7,160 nt of DNA from a virus (lineage: Duplodnaviria > Heunggongvirae > Uroviricota > Caudoviricetes): the IMG/VR virus record IMGVR_UViG_2671180680_000012; one strand, 5' to 3'. A program made the translations under genes and the position numbers. How positions within the stretch are numbered: position 1 is the first letter of the stretch; each line of letters opens with the position of its first letter. Shown here one piece after another: positions 1-7,035 of the stretch. The notes beneath the pieces are model-generated. The model searched no databases. It saw only the letters and a program-made list of their open reading frames with translations, and had not been told where the DNA came from.

Positions 1-2
1 AG

Positions 3-581
3 GGACAGCTGATAGAAACAGAAGCCACTGGAGCACCTCAAAAACACCATCATACACTAAATCAGTAAGTTGGCAGCATCACCGGGGGCGCAGACCCTGA
101 TTATGTTATCTGGGCGAAAGAAGTTCAGGGTATTAACCGTGCATGGACTTTCAGACACTGGAAAGGCACTGGAACGGTTGGCGTGATGGTGGCGACAAAC
201 GATCCGGAACGCCCGGCCCCGGATGAAAGCGTGATTAACGCAGTCAGGGACCACATCCTTCCTCTGGCACCTGTTGCCGGAAGCGGATTGTATGTATTCG
301 GTGCCACAGAAAAAGTCATCCCGATGACGATTGCATTATCGAAAGACACACCGCAGATCAGGACTGCAATAAAAGCAGAGCTGAATGCACTGATGTTACG
401 GGATGGTGTGCCAGAGGGGCGTATGTATCTGTCCAGAATCAGTGAGGCCATCAGTTTGTCTGCTGGTGAAGTGGCCCACCGGTTAATCGTCCCTTCATCG
501 GATATTGACCTGGGGGAGACCGAGCTTCCGGTGCTCGGCGAGATCACCTGGCAGGCTTATGACCCGGCAAGGAGTAAATAA
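3..581 (+). pseudogene. Baseplate assembly protein J-like (P2 gpJ / Mu gp47 family), 3' part; gene continues upstream of the window and is interrupted by in-frame TAA at 66-68
   Basis: Frame 0 is open 69-581 and encodes GADPDYVIWAKEVQGINRAW...LYVFGATEKVIPMTIAL..., resembling the C-terminal half of J-family baseplate proteins. There is no ATG/GTG/TTG between 69 and GTG 183, so the conserved segment 69-182 cannot be translated on its own. The same frame upstream (3-65) is also open and protein-like. Position immediately 5' of a gpI-like gene matches P2 J-I-H-G order. Confidence 0.55.
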
Positions 582-1171
582 TGGATTCGTTACAGGATGA
601 TTATACAAAGCTGCTGTACGGACTGATGCCGCCGGGGCCTGCATGGTCAGATACCGACGGTGTACTTGACGGTCTGGCACCATCGCTTGTGCGTGTTCAC
701 CAGCGGGCTGATGAACTGGTGATTGAAATCGATCCCGGTCAGTCCACAGAGCTGATTGAACGTTATGAAGAATTGTATGGTTTACCTGATTCCTGTTCCC
801 CTGTCGGAACCCAGACATTACGCCAGCGTCAGCAACGTCTTGAAGCAAAAGCCAATGTGGCTGGTGGCATAAATGAGCAGTTCTTCCTGGATCAGCTTGA
901 GGCGCTGGGATATACCGGCGTAACGATCGAACAGTTCCAGCACTTGGATGCAAGCCCCGATCCGGAATGGGGAGATCGCTGGCGTTATTTCTGGCGTGTG
1001 ACGTTGCCGATGGATGCCGGTGCTCAGTGGCAGACATGCACGGACGCCTGCAACACACCGATCCGGACGTGGGGGGATACGGTTGCGGAGTGCGTGATTA
1101 ATAAATTATGTCCGTCACACACCGTCGTTTTATTTTCCTATCCAGATGAGGATGAAGATGCACAGGATTGA
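581..1171 (+). CDS. Phage tail/baseplate protein, P2 gpI / Mu gp48 / YmfQ-like (DUF2313-type)
   Basis: 196-aa ORF. N-terminus MDSLQDDYTKLLYGLMPPGPAWS...ELIERYEELYGLPDSC matches the pattern I recall for YmfQ/DUF2313 tail proteins. SD AAGGAG at 569-574, 6 nt before ATG 581. Start overlaps the J stop as TAATG (579-583). Confidence 0.8.
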   Translation: MDSLQDDYTKLLYGLMPPGPAWSDTDGVLDGLAPSLVRVHQRADELVIEIDPGQSTELIERYEELYGLPDSCSPVGTQTLRQRQQRLEAKANVAGGINEQFFLDQLEALGYTGVTIEQFQHLDASPDPEWGDRWRYFWRVTLPMDAGAQWQTCTDACNTPIRTWGDTVAECVINKLCPSHTVVLFSYPDEDEDAQD

Positions 1172-2198
1172 TACGCTGACTGCGGTAAAAGATAAGTTTG
1201 GTCCGGGTAAGAACGGATTTACTGACGGAAATCTTCGCACAGGACGTCTTGCTACCTGGCTGAACAGTGCCATGTGGAATGCCATTCAGGAGGAAATCTG
1301 TGGTGTCATTGAGAAGGCCGGGATAGAACTGAATAAAGAAGAACACGACCAGCTATATAAGGCTATATTATTGCTGGTGGGCGGTGCAATTAACGAAGAG
1401 GCATTGCTGATAAAAAATAACCTTTCGGATGTGGAAGACAGGGATGAGGCTGTTGAAAACCTCGGATTAAAACCCACGGTGGATAAGGCAAAAAATGCCG
1501 TTCAGCGTGATGGCGACACCATGACCGGAGAGCTGAAAATCCGTGGTGTTAATGCGCTGAGGATTTTCAACGAAGCTTTTGGCCTGATTTTTCGTCGTTC
1601 GGAAGAGTGCCTGCACCTTATTCCCACCAGTGAAGGTCAGGGGGAAAATGGCGATATTGGTCCCCTGCGCCCGTTCACCATTAATCTGCGGACGGGTGAA
1701 ATATCCATGTCGCATAAAGTGTCTGTTGGCGGTGGTTCGCAGGTCAATGGTGCGCTGGGTATCGGCGTTCAGAACGCCCTGGGGGGGAATTCAATTGTTC
1801 TTGGTGATAATGACACCGGATTCAAACAGAATGGTGATGGCCTGCTGGATGTTTATGCCAATAGCGTGCATGTGTTGCGTTTTCAGAGTGGCAGTATCCA
1901 GAGTAATAAAGCTGTAAACGTTACAGGACGGGTAACACCGTCAGACTACGGAAACTTTGATGCCCGTTACCAGCAGCGAAATGGTGGCGTGCAGGATGTG
2001 CGGTATGGTTATGAAATGTATTACACCCCCGGCAGTAACACCGTTTCGTGGACATTTCGCTCACCTTCGGGACACGGGCTGTCAGGGATATCGATATCGG
2101 ATACCGGCCGTAACTCAGCGGATAACGTCAACGGCGTGTATTACCGACCGCTGCAAAAACTGATTAATGGCACCTGGTATAACGTAGCGAGTATTTAA
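1158..2198 (+). CDS. Tail fibre protein, chimeric: Mu S/e14 Stf-type N-terminal domain fused to a P2 gpH-type C-terminal receptor-binding region
   Basis: ORF open from 1146. Start ATG 1158 preferred because GAGG 1148-1151 lies 6 nt upstream; ATG 1146 and 1152 are alternatives. N-terminus has WLNSAMWNAIQEEICGVIEKAGIELNKEEHDQLYKAI. Downstream has NAVQRDGDTMTGEL, then NALGGNSIVLGDNDTGFKQNGDGLLDVYANS and terminal LINGTWYNVASI, which closely resemble what I recall of the P2 gpH C-terminus. Overlaps the upstream gene by 14 nt. Confidence 0.85.
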   Translation: MHRIDTLTAVKDKFGPGKNGFTDGNLRTGRLATWLNSAMWNAIQEEICGVIEKAGIELNKEEHDQLYKAILLLVGGAINEEALLIKNNLSDVEDRDEAVENLGLKPTVDKAKNAVQRDGDTMTGELKIRGVNALRIFNEAFGLIFRRSEECLHLIPTSEGQGENGDIGPLRPFTINLRTGEISMSHKVSVGGGSQVNGALGIGVQNALGGNSIVLGDNDTGFKQNGDGLLDVYANSVHVLRFQSGSIQSNKAVNVTGRVTPSDYGNFDARYQQRNGGVQDVRYGYEMYYTPGSNTVSWTFRSPSGHGLSGISISDTGRNSADNVNGVYYRPLQKLINGTWYNVASI

Positions 2199-2200
2199 CA

Positions 2201-2746
2201 ATGTTGCATTTAAAAAATATTACGGCAGGTAATCCGAAAACCGCGGAATAATATCAGCTGACAAAACAGTATGATGTCACCTGGCTTTTTTCGGAAGACG
2301 GCAAAAACTGGTATGAAGAACAGAAGAACTTTGCCAGTGACACCATAAAAATGGTTTACACCGGAGACGGGCGCGTGGTGTGGGTCGGTAAGGATGTGAC
2401 AGGCATTGAACCCCGTAACGCCAGTGTTATTGAAGTTCCTGATATTACCGCCAACCGCCGCATTACCGCGCCGGGTTACTGGTTTTACCGCAATGATGAA
2501 TTTGTCTTTGACTACAGACTCAAAGCGGAAGATGAGCGTGATGCCCTTCTGGCTCAGGTCAGTGCCCGGACAGGGGAATGGGAAGAAGACCTGCTGCTGG
2601 GGCTAATCAGCGACGAAGACCGGGAAAAACTGAAAGCGTACCGTATTTACGCGAAATCGCTGCAGGCGATGGATTTCAGCACCATCACTGATAAATCCTC
2701 ATATAACGCCATTGAATGGTCCGTCTCTCCGGAAGGTTCTTCCTGA
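2201..2746 (+). pseudogene. Tail fibre assembly protein (P2 gpG / Mu U type) interrupted by in-frame TAA at 2249-2251
   Basis: ATG 2201 lies 2 nt after the fibre stop. Translation gives MLHLKNITAGNPKTAE-stop-YQLTKQYDVTWLFSEDGKNWYEEQKNF..., matching the conserved N-terminus of P2 G/Mu U chaperones as I recall them. The same frame then runs open to TGA 2744-2746. The ORF track only recovers the restart fragment 2351-2746. Confidence 0.8.
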
Positions 2747-2769
2747 TTTAATTTATCGCGAGAAAAACT

Positions 2770-4038
2770 ATGTCTGTAGTGATATCAGGTGCGCTGACTG
2801 ATGGCGCAGGCATCCCCATGTCCGGATGCCAGATTATTCTGAAATCCCGTGTAAACACCTCAGAAGTGGTGATGCGTACCAGGGCTGATGTAGTGACCGG
2901 AAATAACGGTGAATATTCGTTTGAGGCACAGGTCGGAAAATATTGCGTGTATCTGAAACGGGACTGGCGCGACGAGTACTGTGTTGGCGACATTGCTGTA
3001 TACGACGACTCAAAGCCCGGCACGCTGAATGACTTTCTGATTGCTCCTGATGAGGGCGACCTGAAACCGGATGTCGTCAAACGCTTTGAGGAAATGGTGG
3101 CGCAGGCGCAGCAGAGCGCCGGGGCCGCAGCCGGAAACGCACAGCAGACGGCGCAGGATGTGGCGGCAGCCGCAGGTTATGCCCGCGCAGCAGAGCAGGC
3201 CAAAAATGACATTGATGCTGCGCTGACCGGCACTCTGAAAACGGCTAACCATCTGTCTGAAATCGCAGCAGCAGGCGAAAAGGCACAACAGAAGTCCCGG
3301 GATAATCTGGGGCTGAAAAGTGCGGCCACGATGGAAGCACAGAGCGACATTTACGACCGGACAAAAGGCCGTCTGGCGATACCCGGCGCATTCGGCTTTG
3401 GGTGTGCTTTTCTGCCTGAAGATGTTATCCGTTTTGACACTAAGAGTGATTTCCTGGCCTGGGTAAGGAATGCGCTGCCAGGTGAATATTCCGTTGCTGG
3501 CCCCTACGACATCATCATACCCGACACACGGTTTGAAGGGGTGCTCAGCATCCGGTGGACTGATGCACGCCCTGAGACAACAGAACCGAGGTACAGAGCC
3601 AAATCCCTTACTTTTTACGGCATTAACGGCCCCATTTATCACACCCGCTACTGCTACTGGCCCATATCCAGACTGACTGGCTGGGTGAAAATAAATATAA
3701 CCACAGAAGATATTATTTACAGAATCGTGGCGAGCTCTGTCTGCAACAGATGGGGAGACCCTGACATTGGCGGGCTGATTATTGCTGCGTACCAGGGAGA
3801 AGCTGACGGTGATAAAGTCATCAGACTTGTCAGGGGGCAGTCATACAGAGGCTCACGACTGGGACCGGTGGGGATTTCAGTGCCCAGTACTCCCACCGGA
3901 ACGTATATAGCATCCCCACAATTTTTCATTACGGGATGTTCAGAGCATTCATTACCGGGGTCATATAGCGCCCTGTCCGGGGTGCCGGATGCTCATGTCT
4001 CTGGCGCAATGCCCGGGCTTTTTATTCGCACATCGTGA
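2770..4038 (+). CDS. Side tail fibre protein with lambda Stf-type N-terminal domain (Phage_tail_N-like), Ala/Gln-rich stalk and an unrecognised C-terminal domain
   Basis: 422-aa ORF. N-terminus MSVVISGALTDGAGIPMSGCQIILKSRVNTSEVV...VYDDSKPGTLNDFL parallels the lambda Stf N-terminus as I recall it (MAVKISGVLKDGTGKPVQNCTIQLKA...VYEDSQPGTLNDFL). Followed by an AQAQQSAGAAAGNAQQTAQDVAAAAG low-complexity stalk. Weak SD GAGAAA before ATG 2770. Confidence 0.8.
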   Translation: MSVVISGALTDGAGIPMSGCQIILKSRVNTSEVVMRTRADVVTGNNGEYSFEAQVGKYCVYLKRDWRDEYCVGDIAVYDDSKPGTLNDFLIAPDEGDLKPDVVKRFEEMVAQAQQSAGAAAGNAQQTAQDVAAAAGYARAAEQAKNDIDAALTGTLKTANHLSEIAAAGEKAQQKSRDNLGLKSAATMEAQSDIYDRTKGRLAIPGAFGFGCAFLPEDVIRFDTKSDFLAWVRNALPGEYSVAGPYDIIIPDTRFEGVLSIRWTDARPETTEPRYRAKSLTFYGINGPIYHTRYCYWPISRLTGWVKINITTEDIIYRIVASSVCNRWGDPDIGGLIIAAYQGEADGDKVIRLVRGQSYRGSRLGPVGISVPSTPTGTYIASPQFFITGCSEHSLPGSYSALSGVPDAHVSGAMPGLFIRTS

Positions 4039-4048
4039 GGAATGCACC

Positions 4049-4876
4049 GTGGAAATTAAAAAAATCATTAATCCCCGTTATACCGAAAGTGGCGCAGTAG
4101 ACTGTGACGTTTTTTTTGACGACAGGGACCAGGCAGTCCCCTACACAGCCACCGCTGATGATGTCGCACCGACGGGTCAGCGAATCTGGCAGGAACTGCA
4201 AAGTGGCAAATGGGGTGAGATAGCCCCATTCACTGTGACACCAGAAATGCTGGAAGCGGCCAGAGAGGCCAGACGTCAGGAAATTGAAGCATGGCGCACA
4301 GAACAGGAGGCGAAGCCGTTCACGTTTGAATGGAACGGTCGTATCTGGAATGCTGGCCCCAACTCACTGGGCCGCCTGTCCCCGGTAGTCATGCTGGCAA
4401 AATCTGTCACAGCACAAACNNNNNNNNNNNNNNNNNNNNNNNNNNNNNNNNNNNNNNNNNNNNNNNNNNNNNNNNNNNNNNNNNNNNNNNNNNNNNNNNN
4501 NNNNNNNNNNNNNNNNNNNNNNNNNNNNNNNNNNNNNNNNNNNNNNNNNNNNNNNNNNNNNNNNNNNNNNNNNNNNNNNNNNNNNNNNNNNNNNNNNNNN
4601 NNNNNNNNNNNNNNNNNNNNNNNNNNNNNNNNNNNNNNNNNNNNNNNNNNNNNNNNNNNNNNNNNNNNNNNNNNNNNNNNNNNNNNNNNNNNNNNNNNNG
4701 ATGCCGATAATCAGCAGGTGAAACTGTCGATGCCGGAACTGGAAGAACTGGCGGCAGCAATGGTGCAGGCGCAGGTCGATCGCAACGATGAGATTTATCG
4801 CCGTCAGCGTGAAATGAAAGAGGAGCTGAGTGGTCTGGAGGATTTGGGAACAATTAGAGCGTTTGATGTTACGTAA
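4049..4876 (+). CDS. Putative tail fibre assembly/chaperone protein (assigned by position; interior masked by N-run 4420-4699)
   Basis: In-frame GTG 4049 with SD GAGG 4037-4040 eight nt upstream, directly after the Stf-like stop (TGA 4036-4038). The frame is continuous in register across the 280-nt N-run and ends at TAA 4874-4876, followed by a strong terminator. No recognised P2 G/Mu U N-terminal motif. The ORF-track start ATG 3989 would overlap the fibre gene by 50 nt and is less likely. Confidence 0.5.
   Translation: MEIKKIINPRYTESGAVDCDVFFDDRDQAVPYTATADDVAPTGQRIWQELQSGKWGEIAPFTVTPEMLEAAREARRQEIEAWRTEQEAKPFTFEWNGRIWNAGPNSLGRLSPVVMLAKSVTAQXXXXXXXXXXXXXXXXXXXXXXXXXXXXXXXXXXXXXXXXXXXXXXXXXXXXXXXXXXXXXXXXXXXXXXXXXXXXXXXXXXXXXXXXXXXXXXDADNQQVKLSMPELEELAAAMVQAQVDRNDEIYRRQREMKEELSGLEDLGTIRAFDVT
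4420..4699. other. Run of 280 ambiguous bases (masked sequence or assembly gap) inside the putative chaperone gene
   Basis: Contiguous n characters. Reading frame is in register on both sides, consistent with length-preserving masking. Confidence 0.99.
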
Positions 4877-4922
4877 TTGGTAAGCTGCATCGTGTTAAAT
4901 TGTTACCCTTATTTACAACTAG

Positions 4923-4956
4923 AAAAGCCTCTGACTTCATAATCAGAGGCTTTTTT
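4923..4956 (+). terminator. Rho-independent terminator closing the tail-fibre operon (potentially bidirectional)
   Basis: Perfect 12-bp stem AAAAGCCTCTGA (4923-4934) / TCAGAGGCTTTT (4943-4954), 8-nt loop CTTCATAA, T-run to 4956. Lies 47 nt after the stop at 4876. Confidence 0.85.
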
Positions 4957-4973
4957 GAAATGCACGTGCATTT

Positions 4974-5222
4974 NNNNNNNNNNNNNNNNNNNNNNNNNNN
5001 NNNNNNNNNNNNNNNNNNNNNNNNNNNNNNNNNNNNNNNNNNNNNNNNNNNNNNNNNNNNNNNNNNNNNNNNNNNNNNNNNNNNNNNNNNNNNNNNNNNN
5101 NNNNNNNNNNNNNNNNNNNNNNNNNNNNNNNNNNNNNNNNNNNNNNNNNNNNNNNNNNNNNNNNNNNNNNNNNNNNNNNNNNNNNNNNNNNNNNNNNNNN
5201 NNNNNNNNNNNNNNNNNNNNNN
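4974..5222. other. Run of 249 ambiguous bases covering the predicted 3' 135 nt of ssrA and about 114 nt of the prophage/ssrA junction
   Basis: Contiguous n characters. Visible ssrA sequence begins at 5223, corresponding to tmRNA nt 228. Confidence 0.99.
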
Positions 5223-5450
5223 CGCTTCAACCCCAGGCAGGGCTTCCACGCGATCTCTTTTGGGTTTGACCTCTCTTGATCCCCGTCCTAAGAGCGGAGG
5301 CTAGGGAGAGAGGGCTCTAAGCAGGTTATTAAGCTGCTAAAGCGTAGTTTTCGTCGTTTGCGACTATTTTTTGCGGCTTTTTACGAGGCCAACCGCCCCT
5401 CGGCATGCACCTTGGGTTTCGCAAATCCCGTCGAATCCAGAATCAGCCCC
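5088..5450 (-). ncRNA. ssrA: tmRNA (SsrA). Only 5223-5450 (tmRNA nt 1-228) is visible; the 3' end at about 5088 is inferred from the canonical 363-nt length and lies in the N-run
   Basis: Reverse complement of 5441-5450 is GGGGCTGATT, the mature tmRNA 5' end. Reverse complement of 5329-5361 is GCAAACGACGAAAACTACGCTTTAGCAGCTTAA, encoding the ANDENYALAA tag plus stop. The whole visible stretch matches the E. coli ssrA sequence as I recall it. smpB lies immediately upstream in the same orientation. Confidence 0.93.
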
Positions 5451-5664: not shown

Positions 5665-6147
5665 TTAACGGTGGGCGTTTTTCATGATACGTGCTTTATC
5701 CACCTGCCATTCGCGTTCTTTGATATCTGAACGTTTATCGTGCTGTTTTTTACCTTTGGCGACGCCGATTTTCACTTTGCACCAGGCATTTTTCCAGTAC
5801 AGGGAGAGCGCCACTACGGTATAGCCTTCTCGATTGACGCGACCGTACAATGAGTCCAGTTCGCGCTGGTTGAGAAGTAACTTGCGGGTACGGGTAGGAT
5901 CGCACACCACATGCGTGGAGGCCACGGCCATTGGCGTGATGTTAGCGCCAAACAGAAATGCCTCTCCGTCACGCAGAAGGACGTAGCTGTCGCTGATATT
6001 GGCTTTTCCTGCGCGCAGGGATTTAACTTCCCAGCCTTGCAGGGCAAGTCCCGCTTCGAACTCTTCTTCGATAAAGTATTCGTGACGGGCGCGCTTGTTA
6101 AGCGCGATGGTCGCTGAACCAGGTTTATGTGCTTTTTTCTTCGTCAT
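5665..6147 (-). CDS. smpB: SsrA-binding protein SmpB
   Basis: 160-aa [56 protein letters not shown]... matches E. coli SmpB as I recall it. Canonical position directly upstream of ssrA on the same strand. Confidence 0.96.
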
Positions 6148-6278: not shown

Positions 6279-6755
6279 ATGATATTATTTGTTGGATTTT
6301 TGTTGATGGAAATAGTTATGCCTCAGATTAGCCGGACCGCACTGGTACCCTACAGCGCGGAGCAAATGTATCAGTTAGTGAATGACGTTCAGTCTTATCC
6401 TCAGTTTTTGCCGGGTTGTACCGGAAGTCGGATTCTGGAGTCCACTCCTGGGCAGATGACTGCGGCGGTAGATGTCTCTAAGGCTGGGATCAGCAAAACG
6501 TTTACTACCCGCAACCAGTTGACCAGTAACCAAAGTATTCTTATGAATCTGGTGGATGGGCCGTTCAAGAAATTGATTGGTGGATGGAAGTTTACGCCGC
6601 TGAGCCAGGAGGCGTGTCGTATCGAGTTTCATCTCGACTTTGAGTTTACCAATAAGTTGATTGAACTCGCCTTTGGTCGCGTGTTTAAAGAGCTGGCGTC
6701 TAATATGGTCCAGGCTTTTACGGTTCGTGCGAAAGAGGTTTACAGTGCTAGGTAA
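6279..6755 (+). CDS. ratA: Ribosome association toxin RatA (PasT/YfjG), SRPBCC/polyketide cyclase-like fold
   Basis: 158-aa [53 protein letters not shown]... matches E. coli RatA as I recall it. Divergent from smpB, as in E. coli. Alternative internal start ATG 6318 (MPQISRT...). Confidence 0.9.
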
Positions 6756-7035
6756 AATTGCCGTTGAGGTGGCTTATGCGCTACCTGAGAAGCAGTACCT
6801 GCAGCGCGTGACGCTGCAGGAGGGCGCGACGGTTGAAGAAGCTATTCGCGCCAGTGGCTTGCTGGAATTGCGTACCGATATCGATTTAACTAAAAACAAA
6901 GTCGGCATTTACAGCCGTCCGGCAAAACTAAGCGATAGTGTGCATGATGGCGATCGGGTGGAGATTTATCGCCCTCTCATTGCCGATCCGAAAGAGCTTC
7001 GCAGGCAACGAGCAGAAAAATCAGCGAATAAATAA
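6745..7035 (+). CDS. ratB: RatB (PasI/YfjF), RnfH-family ubiquitin-like small protein
   Basis: GTG 6745 with SD AAGAGG 6733-6738 six nt upstream gives a 96-aa product [48 protein letters not shown]..., the expected length and sequence for E. coli RatB. Overlaps the ratA 3' end by 11 nt. The ORF-track start at 6661 has no support. Confidence 0.88.

Follow-up and report, generated by a model that had tools for sequence, protein, structure and literature searches.

The junction between a phiP27-like prophage tail module and ssrA: a probable native attachment site

The tmRNA gene, ssrA, is a listed insertion site for Stx phages (PMC3491183, PMC8065619). In the viral DNA analyzed here, a stretch of 7,160 nucleotides (hereafter the window), a tail-fiber module on the + strand ends at position 4876 and is followed by ssrA on the − strand, the tail operon and ssrA thus being convergent. 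The initial annotation described this tail-fiber end, a terminator and a convergent ssrA with a masked 3′-end, all of which are borne out by the open reading frames, RNA folding and the Rfam match. It also raised a question: why does a prophage end abut ssrA with no integrase between them? Either the integrase lies at the far end of the element, or the locus is a deletion remnant. Our analysis indicates that positions 4877–5450 very probably represent the ssrA-proximal, native Campbell-type att junction of a phiP27-like temperate myovirus, the integrase of which normally resides at the opposite end.

Gene content of the window

The features of the window are collected in Table 1. The C-terminal part of the baseplate J gene can be aligned to the E. 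coli C311 gene, which is uninterrupted, and in sister loci a full IS1 is found at the window start with the N-terminal half of baseplate J on its other side. The IS1 end at 1–83 therefore reads as a simple insertion rather than a truncation, with the prophage resuming beyond it in the sister genomes. The IS1/baseplate J junction had no exact match in the collection of species-representative genomes, so the window does not derive from one of them. The exact Mu Gp48/YmfQ-type protein is present in 3,758 blocks of the public collection searched by exact-protein look-up. The first tail-fiber protein matches Pfam gp37_trimer weakly, below the cut-off; no exact-protein match to the 350-aa tail fiber was found in public records, in which another start codon is probably called. 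The translation of the tail-fiber assembly protein is identical in the window and the sister locus, and the exact second tail-fiber protein was found on many IS-rich chromosomes of 4.5–5.0 Mb, probably those of Shigella sonnei, adjoining ssrA/smpB. Since the window copy of the DUF4376 gene is broken by a run of Ns (4420–4699), its Pfam score was taken on the sister-locus protein; the true product is 207 aa and the gene is multi-copy.

Table 1. Coordinates of the features in the window
Feature	Position	Strand	Evidence or remark
IS1 end, terminal 83 nt, inside baseplate J gene	1..83		100% identity to IS1 ends in phage P1 records
Target duplication GGGGGCGCAG, 9–10 bp	84–93		After IS1 end; junctions and duplication read directly
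Baseplate J/gp47, C-terminal part, cut by IS1	84..581	+	Pfam Baseplate_J, E = 3e-08
Mu Gp48/YmfQ-type baseplate protein	581..1171	+	Pfam Phage_Mu_Gp48, E = 2.3e-25
First tail-fiber protein	1146..2198	+	Stretch annotated tail fiber in phiP27 and E. coli relatives
Tail-fiber assembly protein (Caudo_TAP)	2258..2746	+	Pfam PF02413, E = 7.3e-21
Second tail-fiber protein, prophage tail fiber N-terminal domain	2770..4038	+	Pfam phage_tail_N, E = 2.4e-63
DUF4376 protein, last prophage gene	3989..4876	+	Stop codon 4874–4876; Pfam DUF4376, E = 1.5e-16
Rho-independent terminator hairpin, T/U run on both strands	4923..4956		Fold; closes tail operon
Tail-side arm of phage attachment site	4957..5087		Visible part only 4957–4973; real length 118 nt
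ssrA (tmRNA gene)	5088..5450	−	Visible 5223–5450; 3′ 135 nt masked; Rfam RF00023
Core common to phage and host, last 27 nt of ssrA, CGGGTTCAACTCCCGCCAGCTCCACCA	5088..5114	−	Masked; counted from right flank
smpB, host gene upstream of ssrA	5665..6147	−	ORF; SmpB annotation in aligned E. coli records
ratA	6279–6755	+	With smpB, usual ssrA neighborhood

The affiliation of the module is with phiP27 (Stx2e phage; AJ298298/NC_003356): the baseplate J, Gp48, tail-fiber and assembly genes are homologous to, and collinear with, those of this phage, and the baseplate/tail-fiber module shares 91.6% identity over 56% of 1–4973. In the phiP27 genome record the tail fibers are located at the far end. The two differ in that the second tail fiber, the DUF4376 end and the att arm of the window are absent from phiP27, which has been described as integrated in yecE rather than ssrA.

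On the host side, most sister genomes (L004, L006–L008, L011–L012, L014–L017 and L019) possess an IS4-family transposase after yfjF, to the right of window position 7035. After this IS4, raiA/pheA replace bamE/recN/nadK/grpE, a chromosomal rearrangement linked to the IS and situated immediately beyond the window. The E. coli gene order to the right of the same position is retained in L010 and L018.

The masked runs and the tail-side arm

The window contains two N-runs, at 4420–4699 (280 N) and 4974–5222 (249 N). Both flanks of the second (274 and 1938 nt) are 100% identical in 13 sister loci, and over the remainder of the window most of these loci show two to four differing positions; the only mismatches in the closest ones are at 4336 and 4361, just left of the first N-run. 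Recovery of the masked sequence, as suggested in the initial annotation, proved feasible through these loci. At the position of the 249 Ns, 13/13 carry one and the same 236-nt sequence, made up of a 101-nt non-coding spacer (the phage arm) and the 3′-terminal 135 nt of an intact ssrA. Neither an integrase nor any other gene is present in these 236 nt of the sister loci, a length too short for a gene, and the statement that no integrase separates the tail end from ssrA is upheld. Every sister locus spanning the first gap, which falls inside the DUF4376 gene, has 16 nt (GCATATGGCGTGGGGT) in place of the 280 Ns, and the same 16-nt spacing occurs in every complete E. coli genome match listed that spans 4420–4699; a real 264-nt in-frame insertion in DUF4376 under the 280 Ns was considered and rejected on these grounds. 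Both N-runs are evidently placeholders of non-native length, making distances counted across them unreliable. They look like draft-assembly gaps at repeats, or deliberate masks. The 13-nt discrepancy between 249 and 236 nt may also reflect a small indel in the window, where the bases themselves are masked.

The 5′ 228 nt of ssrA are visible in the window, with the 5′-end GGGGCTGATTC at 5450, and an Rfam tmRNA match was obtained on the − strand at 5212–5397 (84.9 bits, E = 1.9e-32). Counting 363 nt back from 5450 places the 3′-end at 5088, in agreement with the earlier estimate. ARAGORN made no tmRNA call on the window, in which the 3′ part of the gene is masked by Ns; in the sister locus it identified a complete 363-nt tmRNA with the tag ANDENYALAA. 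Through the sister loci, the target gene is thus seen to be intact and regenerated where it borders the element, the window's own 3′-end being masked. Because the 249 Ns stand for 236 nt, the T-run and the ssrA 3′-end are actually 118 nt apart; the figure of about 130 nt given previously matches the window count (approximately 131) and not the real spacing in the sister loci.

The hairpin which closes the tail operon is composed of GCCTCTGA (4927–4934), an 8-nt loop, TCAGAGGC (4943–4950) and T6 (4951–4956). It folds with −20.6 kcal/mol (z = −7.05) on the + strand and −20.3 kcal/mol (z = −5.98) on the − strand, and in the lysogen it presumably terminates transcription of ssrA as well. It is kept in the complete prophages of E. 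coli strains C311 and cq9 and in two attP contigs (L110 and L124), all of which are described below. The adjacent arm, recovered via the 13 sister loci, displays few mismatches to the arms of the prophages in C311 and cq9; in L110 and L124 it comes directly after the core. The core itself had been said to lie hidden in the N-run together with the junction; it is indeed masked, and was retrieved from the sister loci. In C311 and cq9, the block identical at both prophage ends consists of CGGGTTCAACTCCCGCCAGCTCCACCA plus 3–5 nt beyond CCA, and the CGGGTTCAACTCCCGCCAGCTCCACCA block represents the T-arm and acceptor 3′ half of the tRNA-like domain. Taken as sequence, window 4957–5114 is best described as an att junction, not ordinary intergenic DNA.

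A perfect 16-nt palindrome, AAATGCACGTGCATTT, is located at 4958–4973, on the edge of the mask, and GGACA-type motifs are repeated in the tail-side arm. The palindrome belongs to a motif, ATGCACGTRAAATGCAC, which is found on both att arms in several phages (L110 4225–4250 and 4420–4447). These repeated arm motifs are candidate binding sites, probably for integrase or an accessory protein. A putative regulatory role can also be envisaged, though we consider it improbable: the bidirectional terminator would take over from the native ssrA terminator, which is displaced, and ATGCACGT-type motifs on both arms would bind a phage or host factor, such that tmRNA 3′-end formation or level would become prophage-dependent. 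This would be loosely comparable to the inactivation of tmRNA upon excision of CP4-57 (PMC10107115).

Integrase position in complete prophages and attP contigs

E. coli C311 (NZ_CP062204.1, 1220772–1264396) harbors a complete, uninterrupted phiP27-like prophage of approximately 43.6 kb at ssrA. It shares with the window the ssrA site, the terminator, the tail-side arm (few mismatches), the tail/baseplate gene order and approximately 91% DNA identity. The polarity is likewise the same, with tail fibers adjoining ssrA and the integrase far away. At the far end the excisionase, the integrase (arm-binding domain PF12167 plus PF00589) and a DUF4760 cargo gene are followed by a 25–27-nt direct repeat of the ssrA 3′-end, after which a P4-type integrase is found. 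The C311 copy is uninterrupted, with head, lysis, replication, repressor, excisionase and integrase genes, whereas the element in the window bears IS1 and IS600; the second tail fiber is also longer in C311.

The Stx2e prophage at ssrA of E. coli cq9 (NZ_CP031546.1) exhibits the same junction and polarity, its integrase lying at the far end. This integrase is 86% identical to that of C311 and is followed after 134 nt by a 25-nt ssrA repeat; in both prophages the integrase is approximately 41–43 kb from the ssrA junction. The cq9 prophage resembles the window in its ssrA core, tail-side arm, terminator and DUF4376 3′-end (88.7% identity). Its tail module differs, having P2-type names (gpV, gpW, gpI, tail protein X and late control protein), and it carries stx2e. 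The contrast between the cq9 and window tail modules shows the integrase-att module moving between distinct phage bodies. The direct repeat of ssrA that had been recommended as a search target is present in these relatives, as displaced 3′ fragments of 25–27 nt beyond the integrases of C311 and cq9; such a fragment is also seen at a tandem junction of sister strains (see below).

The layout seen in C311 and L110, with integrase and tail fibers at opposite prophage ends, is that of phage λ. In λ, int and the end of the late (tail) region flank attP, which in the prophage is split into attL and attR according to the Campbell model. Likeness to λ extends to the tyrosine integrase, which has an arm-binding domain, and to the excisionase beside it. 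The difference lies in the target, which here is the 3′-end of an RNA gene regenerated by a phage copy, rather than an intergenic attB as in λ. Integrases with PF12167 plus PF00589 are present in C311, cq9, L110 and a further type of sister locus, L005.

To examine the integrase family, an alignment of three integrases was used to scan one genome per species, giving 26 loci at an identity of at least 62% from Enterobacter, Citrobacter, Klebsiella, Kosakonia, Proteus, Providencia, Photorhabdus, Yersinia, Serratia, Tolumonas and others. In 26/26 loci a displaced ssrA 3′ fragment follows downstream, on the strand of the integrase, usually after 100–190 nt (1.5–2.4 kb in four of the 26), and in 26/26 ARAGORN detected no full tmRNA gene up to 6 kb on either side of the integrase. 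The first of the two options, an integrase at the far end, consequently corresponds to the native architecture of the family in C311, cq9, the 26 loci and the attP contig. In five of the 26 loci, one per species (L021, L025, L026, L033 and L039), the displaced fragment has a 1-nt deletion (GCCAGC-CCACCA). Damaged displaced fragments with such deletions have been described (Islander paper, PMC4383910), and CP4-57 excision inactivates tmRNA (PMC10107115). Excision at the 1-nt-deletion loci could hand a defective 3′-end to ssrA.

Viral contigs in IMG/VR are congruent with this picture. The core is found downstream of the integrase in 54 of the best 80 integrase loci, and most of the remaining loci of those 80 end just past the integrase. 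Among 34 contigs with the core and tail-side arm, 21 run upstream into at least 100 nt of the tmRNA gene, and in four the integrase is directly upstream. L110, a metagenomic contig, possesses an attP in which the integrase stop codon is followed by a 134-nt arm, a 36-nt ssrA-like block (one mismatch), the tail-side arm and the terminator; beyond the latter are convergent tail-fiber assembly (Caudo_TAP), tail-fiber and baseplate genes. In both L110 and L124 the two arms enclose a copy of the ssrA 3′-end, and the same attP layout was observed in L346 (the L110 contig) and L348.

From these data the following scheme can be proposed. The phage att site sits between the integrase gene and the end of the tail-fiber operon, in the order integrase, arm of approximately 134 nt, 27–37 nt identical to the ssrA 3′-end, arm of approximately 118 nt, terminator and convergent tail-fiber genes. 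Recombination inside the common core would split this site. The tail-side arm, terminator and tail-fiber module would land directly after a regenerated, intact ssrA, and the integrase would come to lie at the other prophage end, approximately 40 kb off, beside the displaced ssrA 3′ fragment. Masked positions 4974–5222 would then read the conserved 101-nt arm followed by TGGTGGAGCTGGCGGGAGTTGAACCCG. The element in the window presumably arose by such an integration. As the integrase goes to the far prophage end, an integrase beside ssrA is not to be expected for this family.

The premise that integrases usually lie next to the tmRNA gene holds for P4-type integrases, including those in C311 and cq9, and fails for the lambdoid-layout phages of this family. 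P4-type islands at ssrA (CP4-57 of K-12, and the islands after the C311 and cq9 fragments) use the same target gene and 3′-end region. The integrase of CP4-57 likewise lies next to the tmRNA gene. P4-type integrases (PF13356 + PF22022 + PF00589) directly adjoin the ssrA 3′-end or fragment, which is not the layout of the window: here ssrA and the terminator are separated by just a 118-nt non-coding arm, beyond which the first gene, DUF4376, lies on the opposite strand. These islands can also form tandem arrays with the phage (PMC4383910, PMC10107115). One might nevertheless suppose that an integrase once stood beside ssrA as in P4-type islands and was deleted, fusing the tail module to ssrA. 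The element has decayed in its lineage (IS1 insertions and an IS600-linked loss of 3.5 kb), and P4-type integrases do occur directly beside the ssrA 3′-end, after the displaced fragment in C311 and cq9. Such a deletion scar is nonetheless very improbable, given that the spacer between terminator and ssrA is the conserved arm of complete integrase-bearing prophages and attP contigs, that ssrA is intact to its CCA end in the sister locus, and that this integrase family is distal to ssrA in 26/26 loci. The suggestion of a deletion remnant thus fails at the junction, where the att arm is conserved, and retains its value for the element as a whole, which is IS-riddled and has lost its capsid gene in the sister genomes.

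The ssrA join, defined as a 231-nt stretch (terminator, arm and ssrA 3′-end) covered to at least 80%, was detected in 537 of 5,426 complete E. coli genomes (approximately 10%). This frequency bears on a second alternative, in which the tail module was moved to ssrA by IS-mediated rearrangement, or by homologous recombination with another prophage, and not by site-specific integration. The sister genomes are IS-rich and rearranged (IS4 after yfjF; raiA/pheA in place of bamE/recN), the DUF4376 gene exists in multiple copies, and a 98%-identical tail module resides elsewhere, beside ipaH, in E. coli FDAARGOS_944. Yet there is no IS at the junction, the join falls exactly at the ssrA 3′-end with a conserved att arm, and the same join recurs in that tenth of complete genomes with intact prophages of varied modules. 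Furthermore, the FDAARGOS_944 homology to the window ends at the DUF4376 stop codon, the terminator and arm thus being specific to ssrA-integrating phages. We regard a relocation of this kind as highly unlikely. The FDAARGOS_944 module (L002 16071–18515) is followed by the T3SS effector pseudogene ipaHe, without an att arm; the strain has an ipaH gene despite its E. coli label.

Other arrangements were observed at ssrA. Two assemblies contribute three sister loci (L005/L013 and L009) in which the 27-nt core, and not ssrA, comes after the terminator and arm. After the core in these L005-type loci (L005 11941–14693) come a different arm, an integrase 68% identical to that of C311, and early genes; an IMG/VR provirus (UViG 2874968258_000001) is identical to L005 and extends approximately 43 kb further right. 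L005-type strains thus possess a second prophage of approximately 43 kb between the window-type element and ssrA, in the same polarity, constituting a tandem array. The L005-type integrase was considered as the element's own and rejected, since it belongs to this second prophage. The retained core in L005-type loci shows a G-to-A change just upstream of the 27-nt block. A regenerated tDNA with a displaced fragment is the standard island signature, and tandem arrays are well known (PMC4383910). In STEC E. coli E2865 (L366 1–3866), the immediate neighbors of ssrA are a DinI-like pseudogene together with two effector genes, espK and espN, and no integrase is present beside ssrA within the 3.8 kb read. 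These genes presumably constitute the cargo end of a further prophage.

The far end of the element

To the left of baseplate J, the sister loci contain the genes for Gp46, Gp45, a DNA circularization protein, tape measure, tube and sheath, and a second IS1 after the tape-measure gene accompanies the one in baseplate J. An IS3-family element of approximately 1.26 kb (100-aa and 272-aa ORFs), taken to be IS600, lies 19 nt upstream of the sheath gene in the sister genomes. It replaces approximately 3.5 kb, comprising the protease C-terminus, major capsid, connector, head closure and tail terminator genes through to DUF2635. All that remains beyond it is a 362-nt prohead-protease fragment. This IS-bearing region (L161 1–1625) is situated approximately 10.3–11.9 kb left of the window start. 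The sister genomes, having lost the major capsid and other genes, do not contain a complete inducible phage genome, and with two IS1 copies and the IS600-linked deletion the prophage is defective in this lineage.

The protease fragment is 100% identical to the viral contig L189, 99.7% to many E. coli prophage head modules, and 86% to C311, as compared to 96.5% identity with C311 in the tail region. In L189 this protease allele occurs together with a P27-like tail. The head module may accordingly be mosaic, or may have been joined by rearrangement.

Several routes toward the integrase end of the element were followed. A leftward walk by DNA pattern through the sister genomes reached the IS600 and the 362-nt protease fragment, and neither an integrase end nor a displaced ssrA repeat; a search with the junction pattern recovered no further block. 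Searching with this fragment returned more than 600 identical head modules, and its protein homologues led to other prophages; the integrase end of the element was found in neither set. The second prophage's integrase, used as a query, gave a cluster representative on a 2.5-kb contig and not the far end of the element. The sister-strain provirus was absent from the best 80 matches of the IMG/VR integrase-family search, and no close integrase relative was detected on it except that of the second prophage. This provirus begins exactly at the protease ATG, a third-party predicted boundary, which hints that the integrase end was lost or moved.

These observations bear on whether any integrase is left. 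The junction may be native and the element nevertheless a tail-module remnant of approximately 17 kb, the early/integrase end of which was deleted or moved by IS600/IS1. As it concerns the far end only, this reading is compatible with a native att junction, and we give it slightly less than an even chance. It is favored by the position of IS600, 19 nt from the sheath gene in place of approximately 3.5 kb with 362 nt of protease beyond, by the difference in identity to C311 between the protease fragment (86%) and the tail region (96.5%), by a provirus start at the protease ATG where portal and terminase would normally be included, and by the lack of a close integrase relative on the sister provirus other than the second prophage's. 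Against it, the provirus boundary is a third-party prediction, not sequence evidence, and the pairing of the same protease allele with a P27-like tail in L189 points to a head module that may be native.

A native att junction of this type is an arrangement already known, and nothing here goes beyond well-described prophage biology. The value of the finding is mainly one of correct annotation: the window represents a defective prophage in an IS-rich, Shigella-type genome, in which the lengths of the N-runs are misleading. For phages of λ-type layout, the absence of an integrase beside a tRNA or tmRNA gene is no sign of deletion, and the integrase, together with the displaced gene fragment, should be looked for a full prophage length away.
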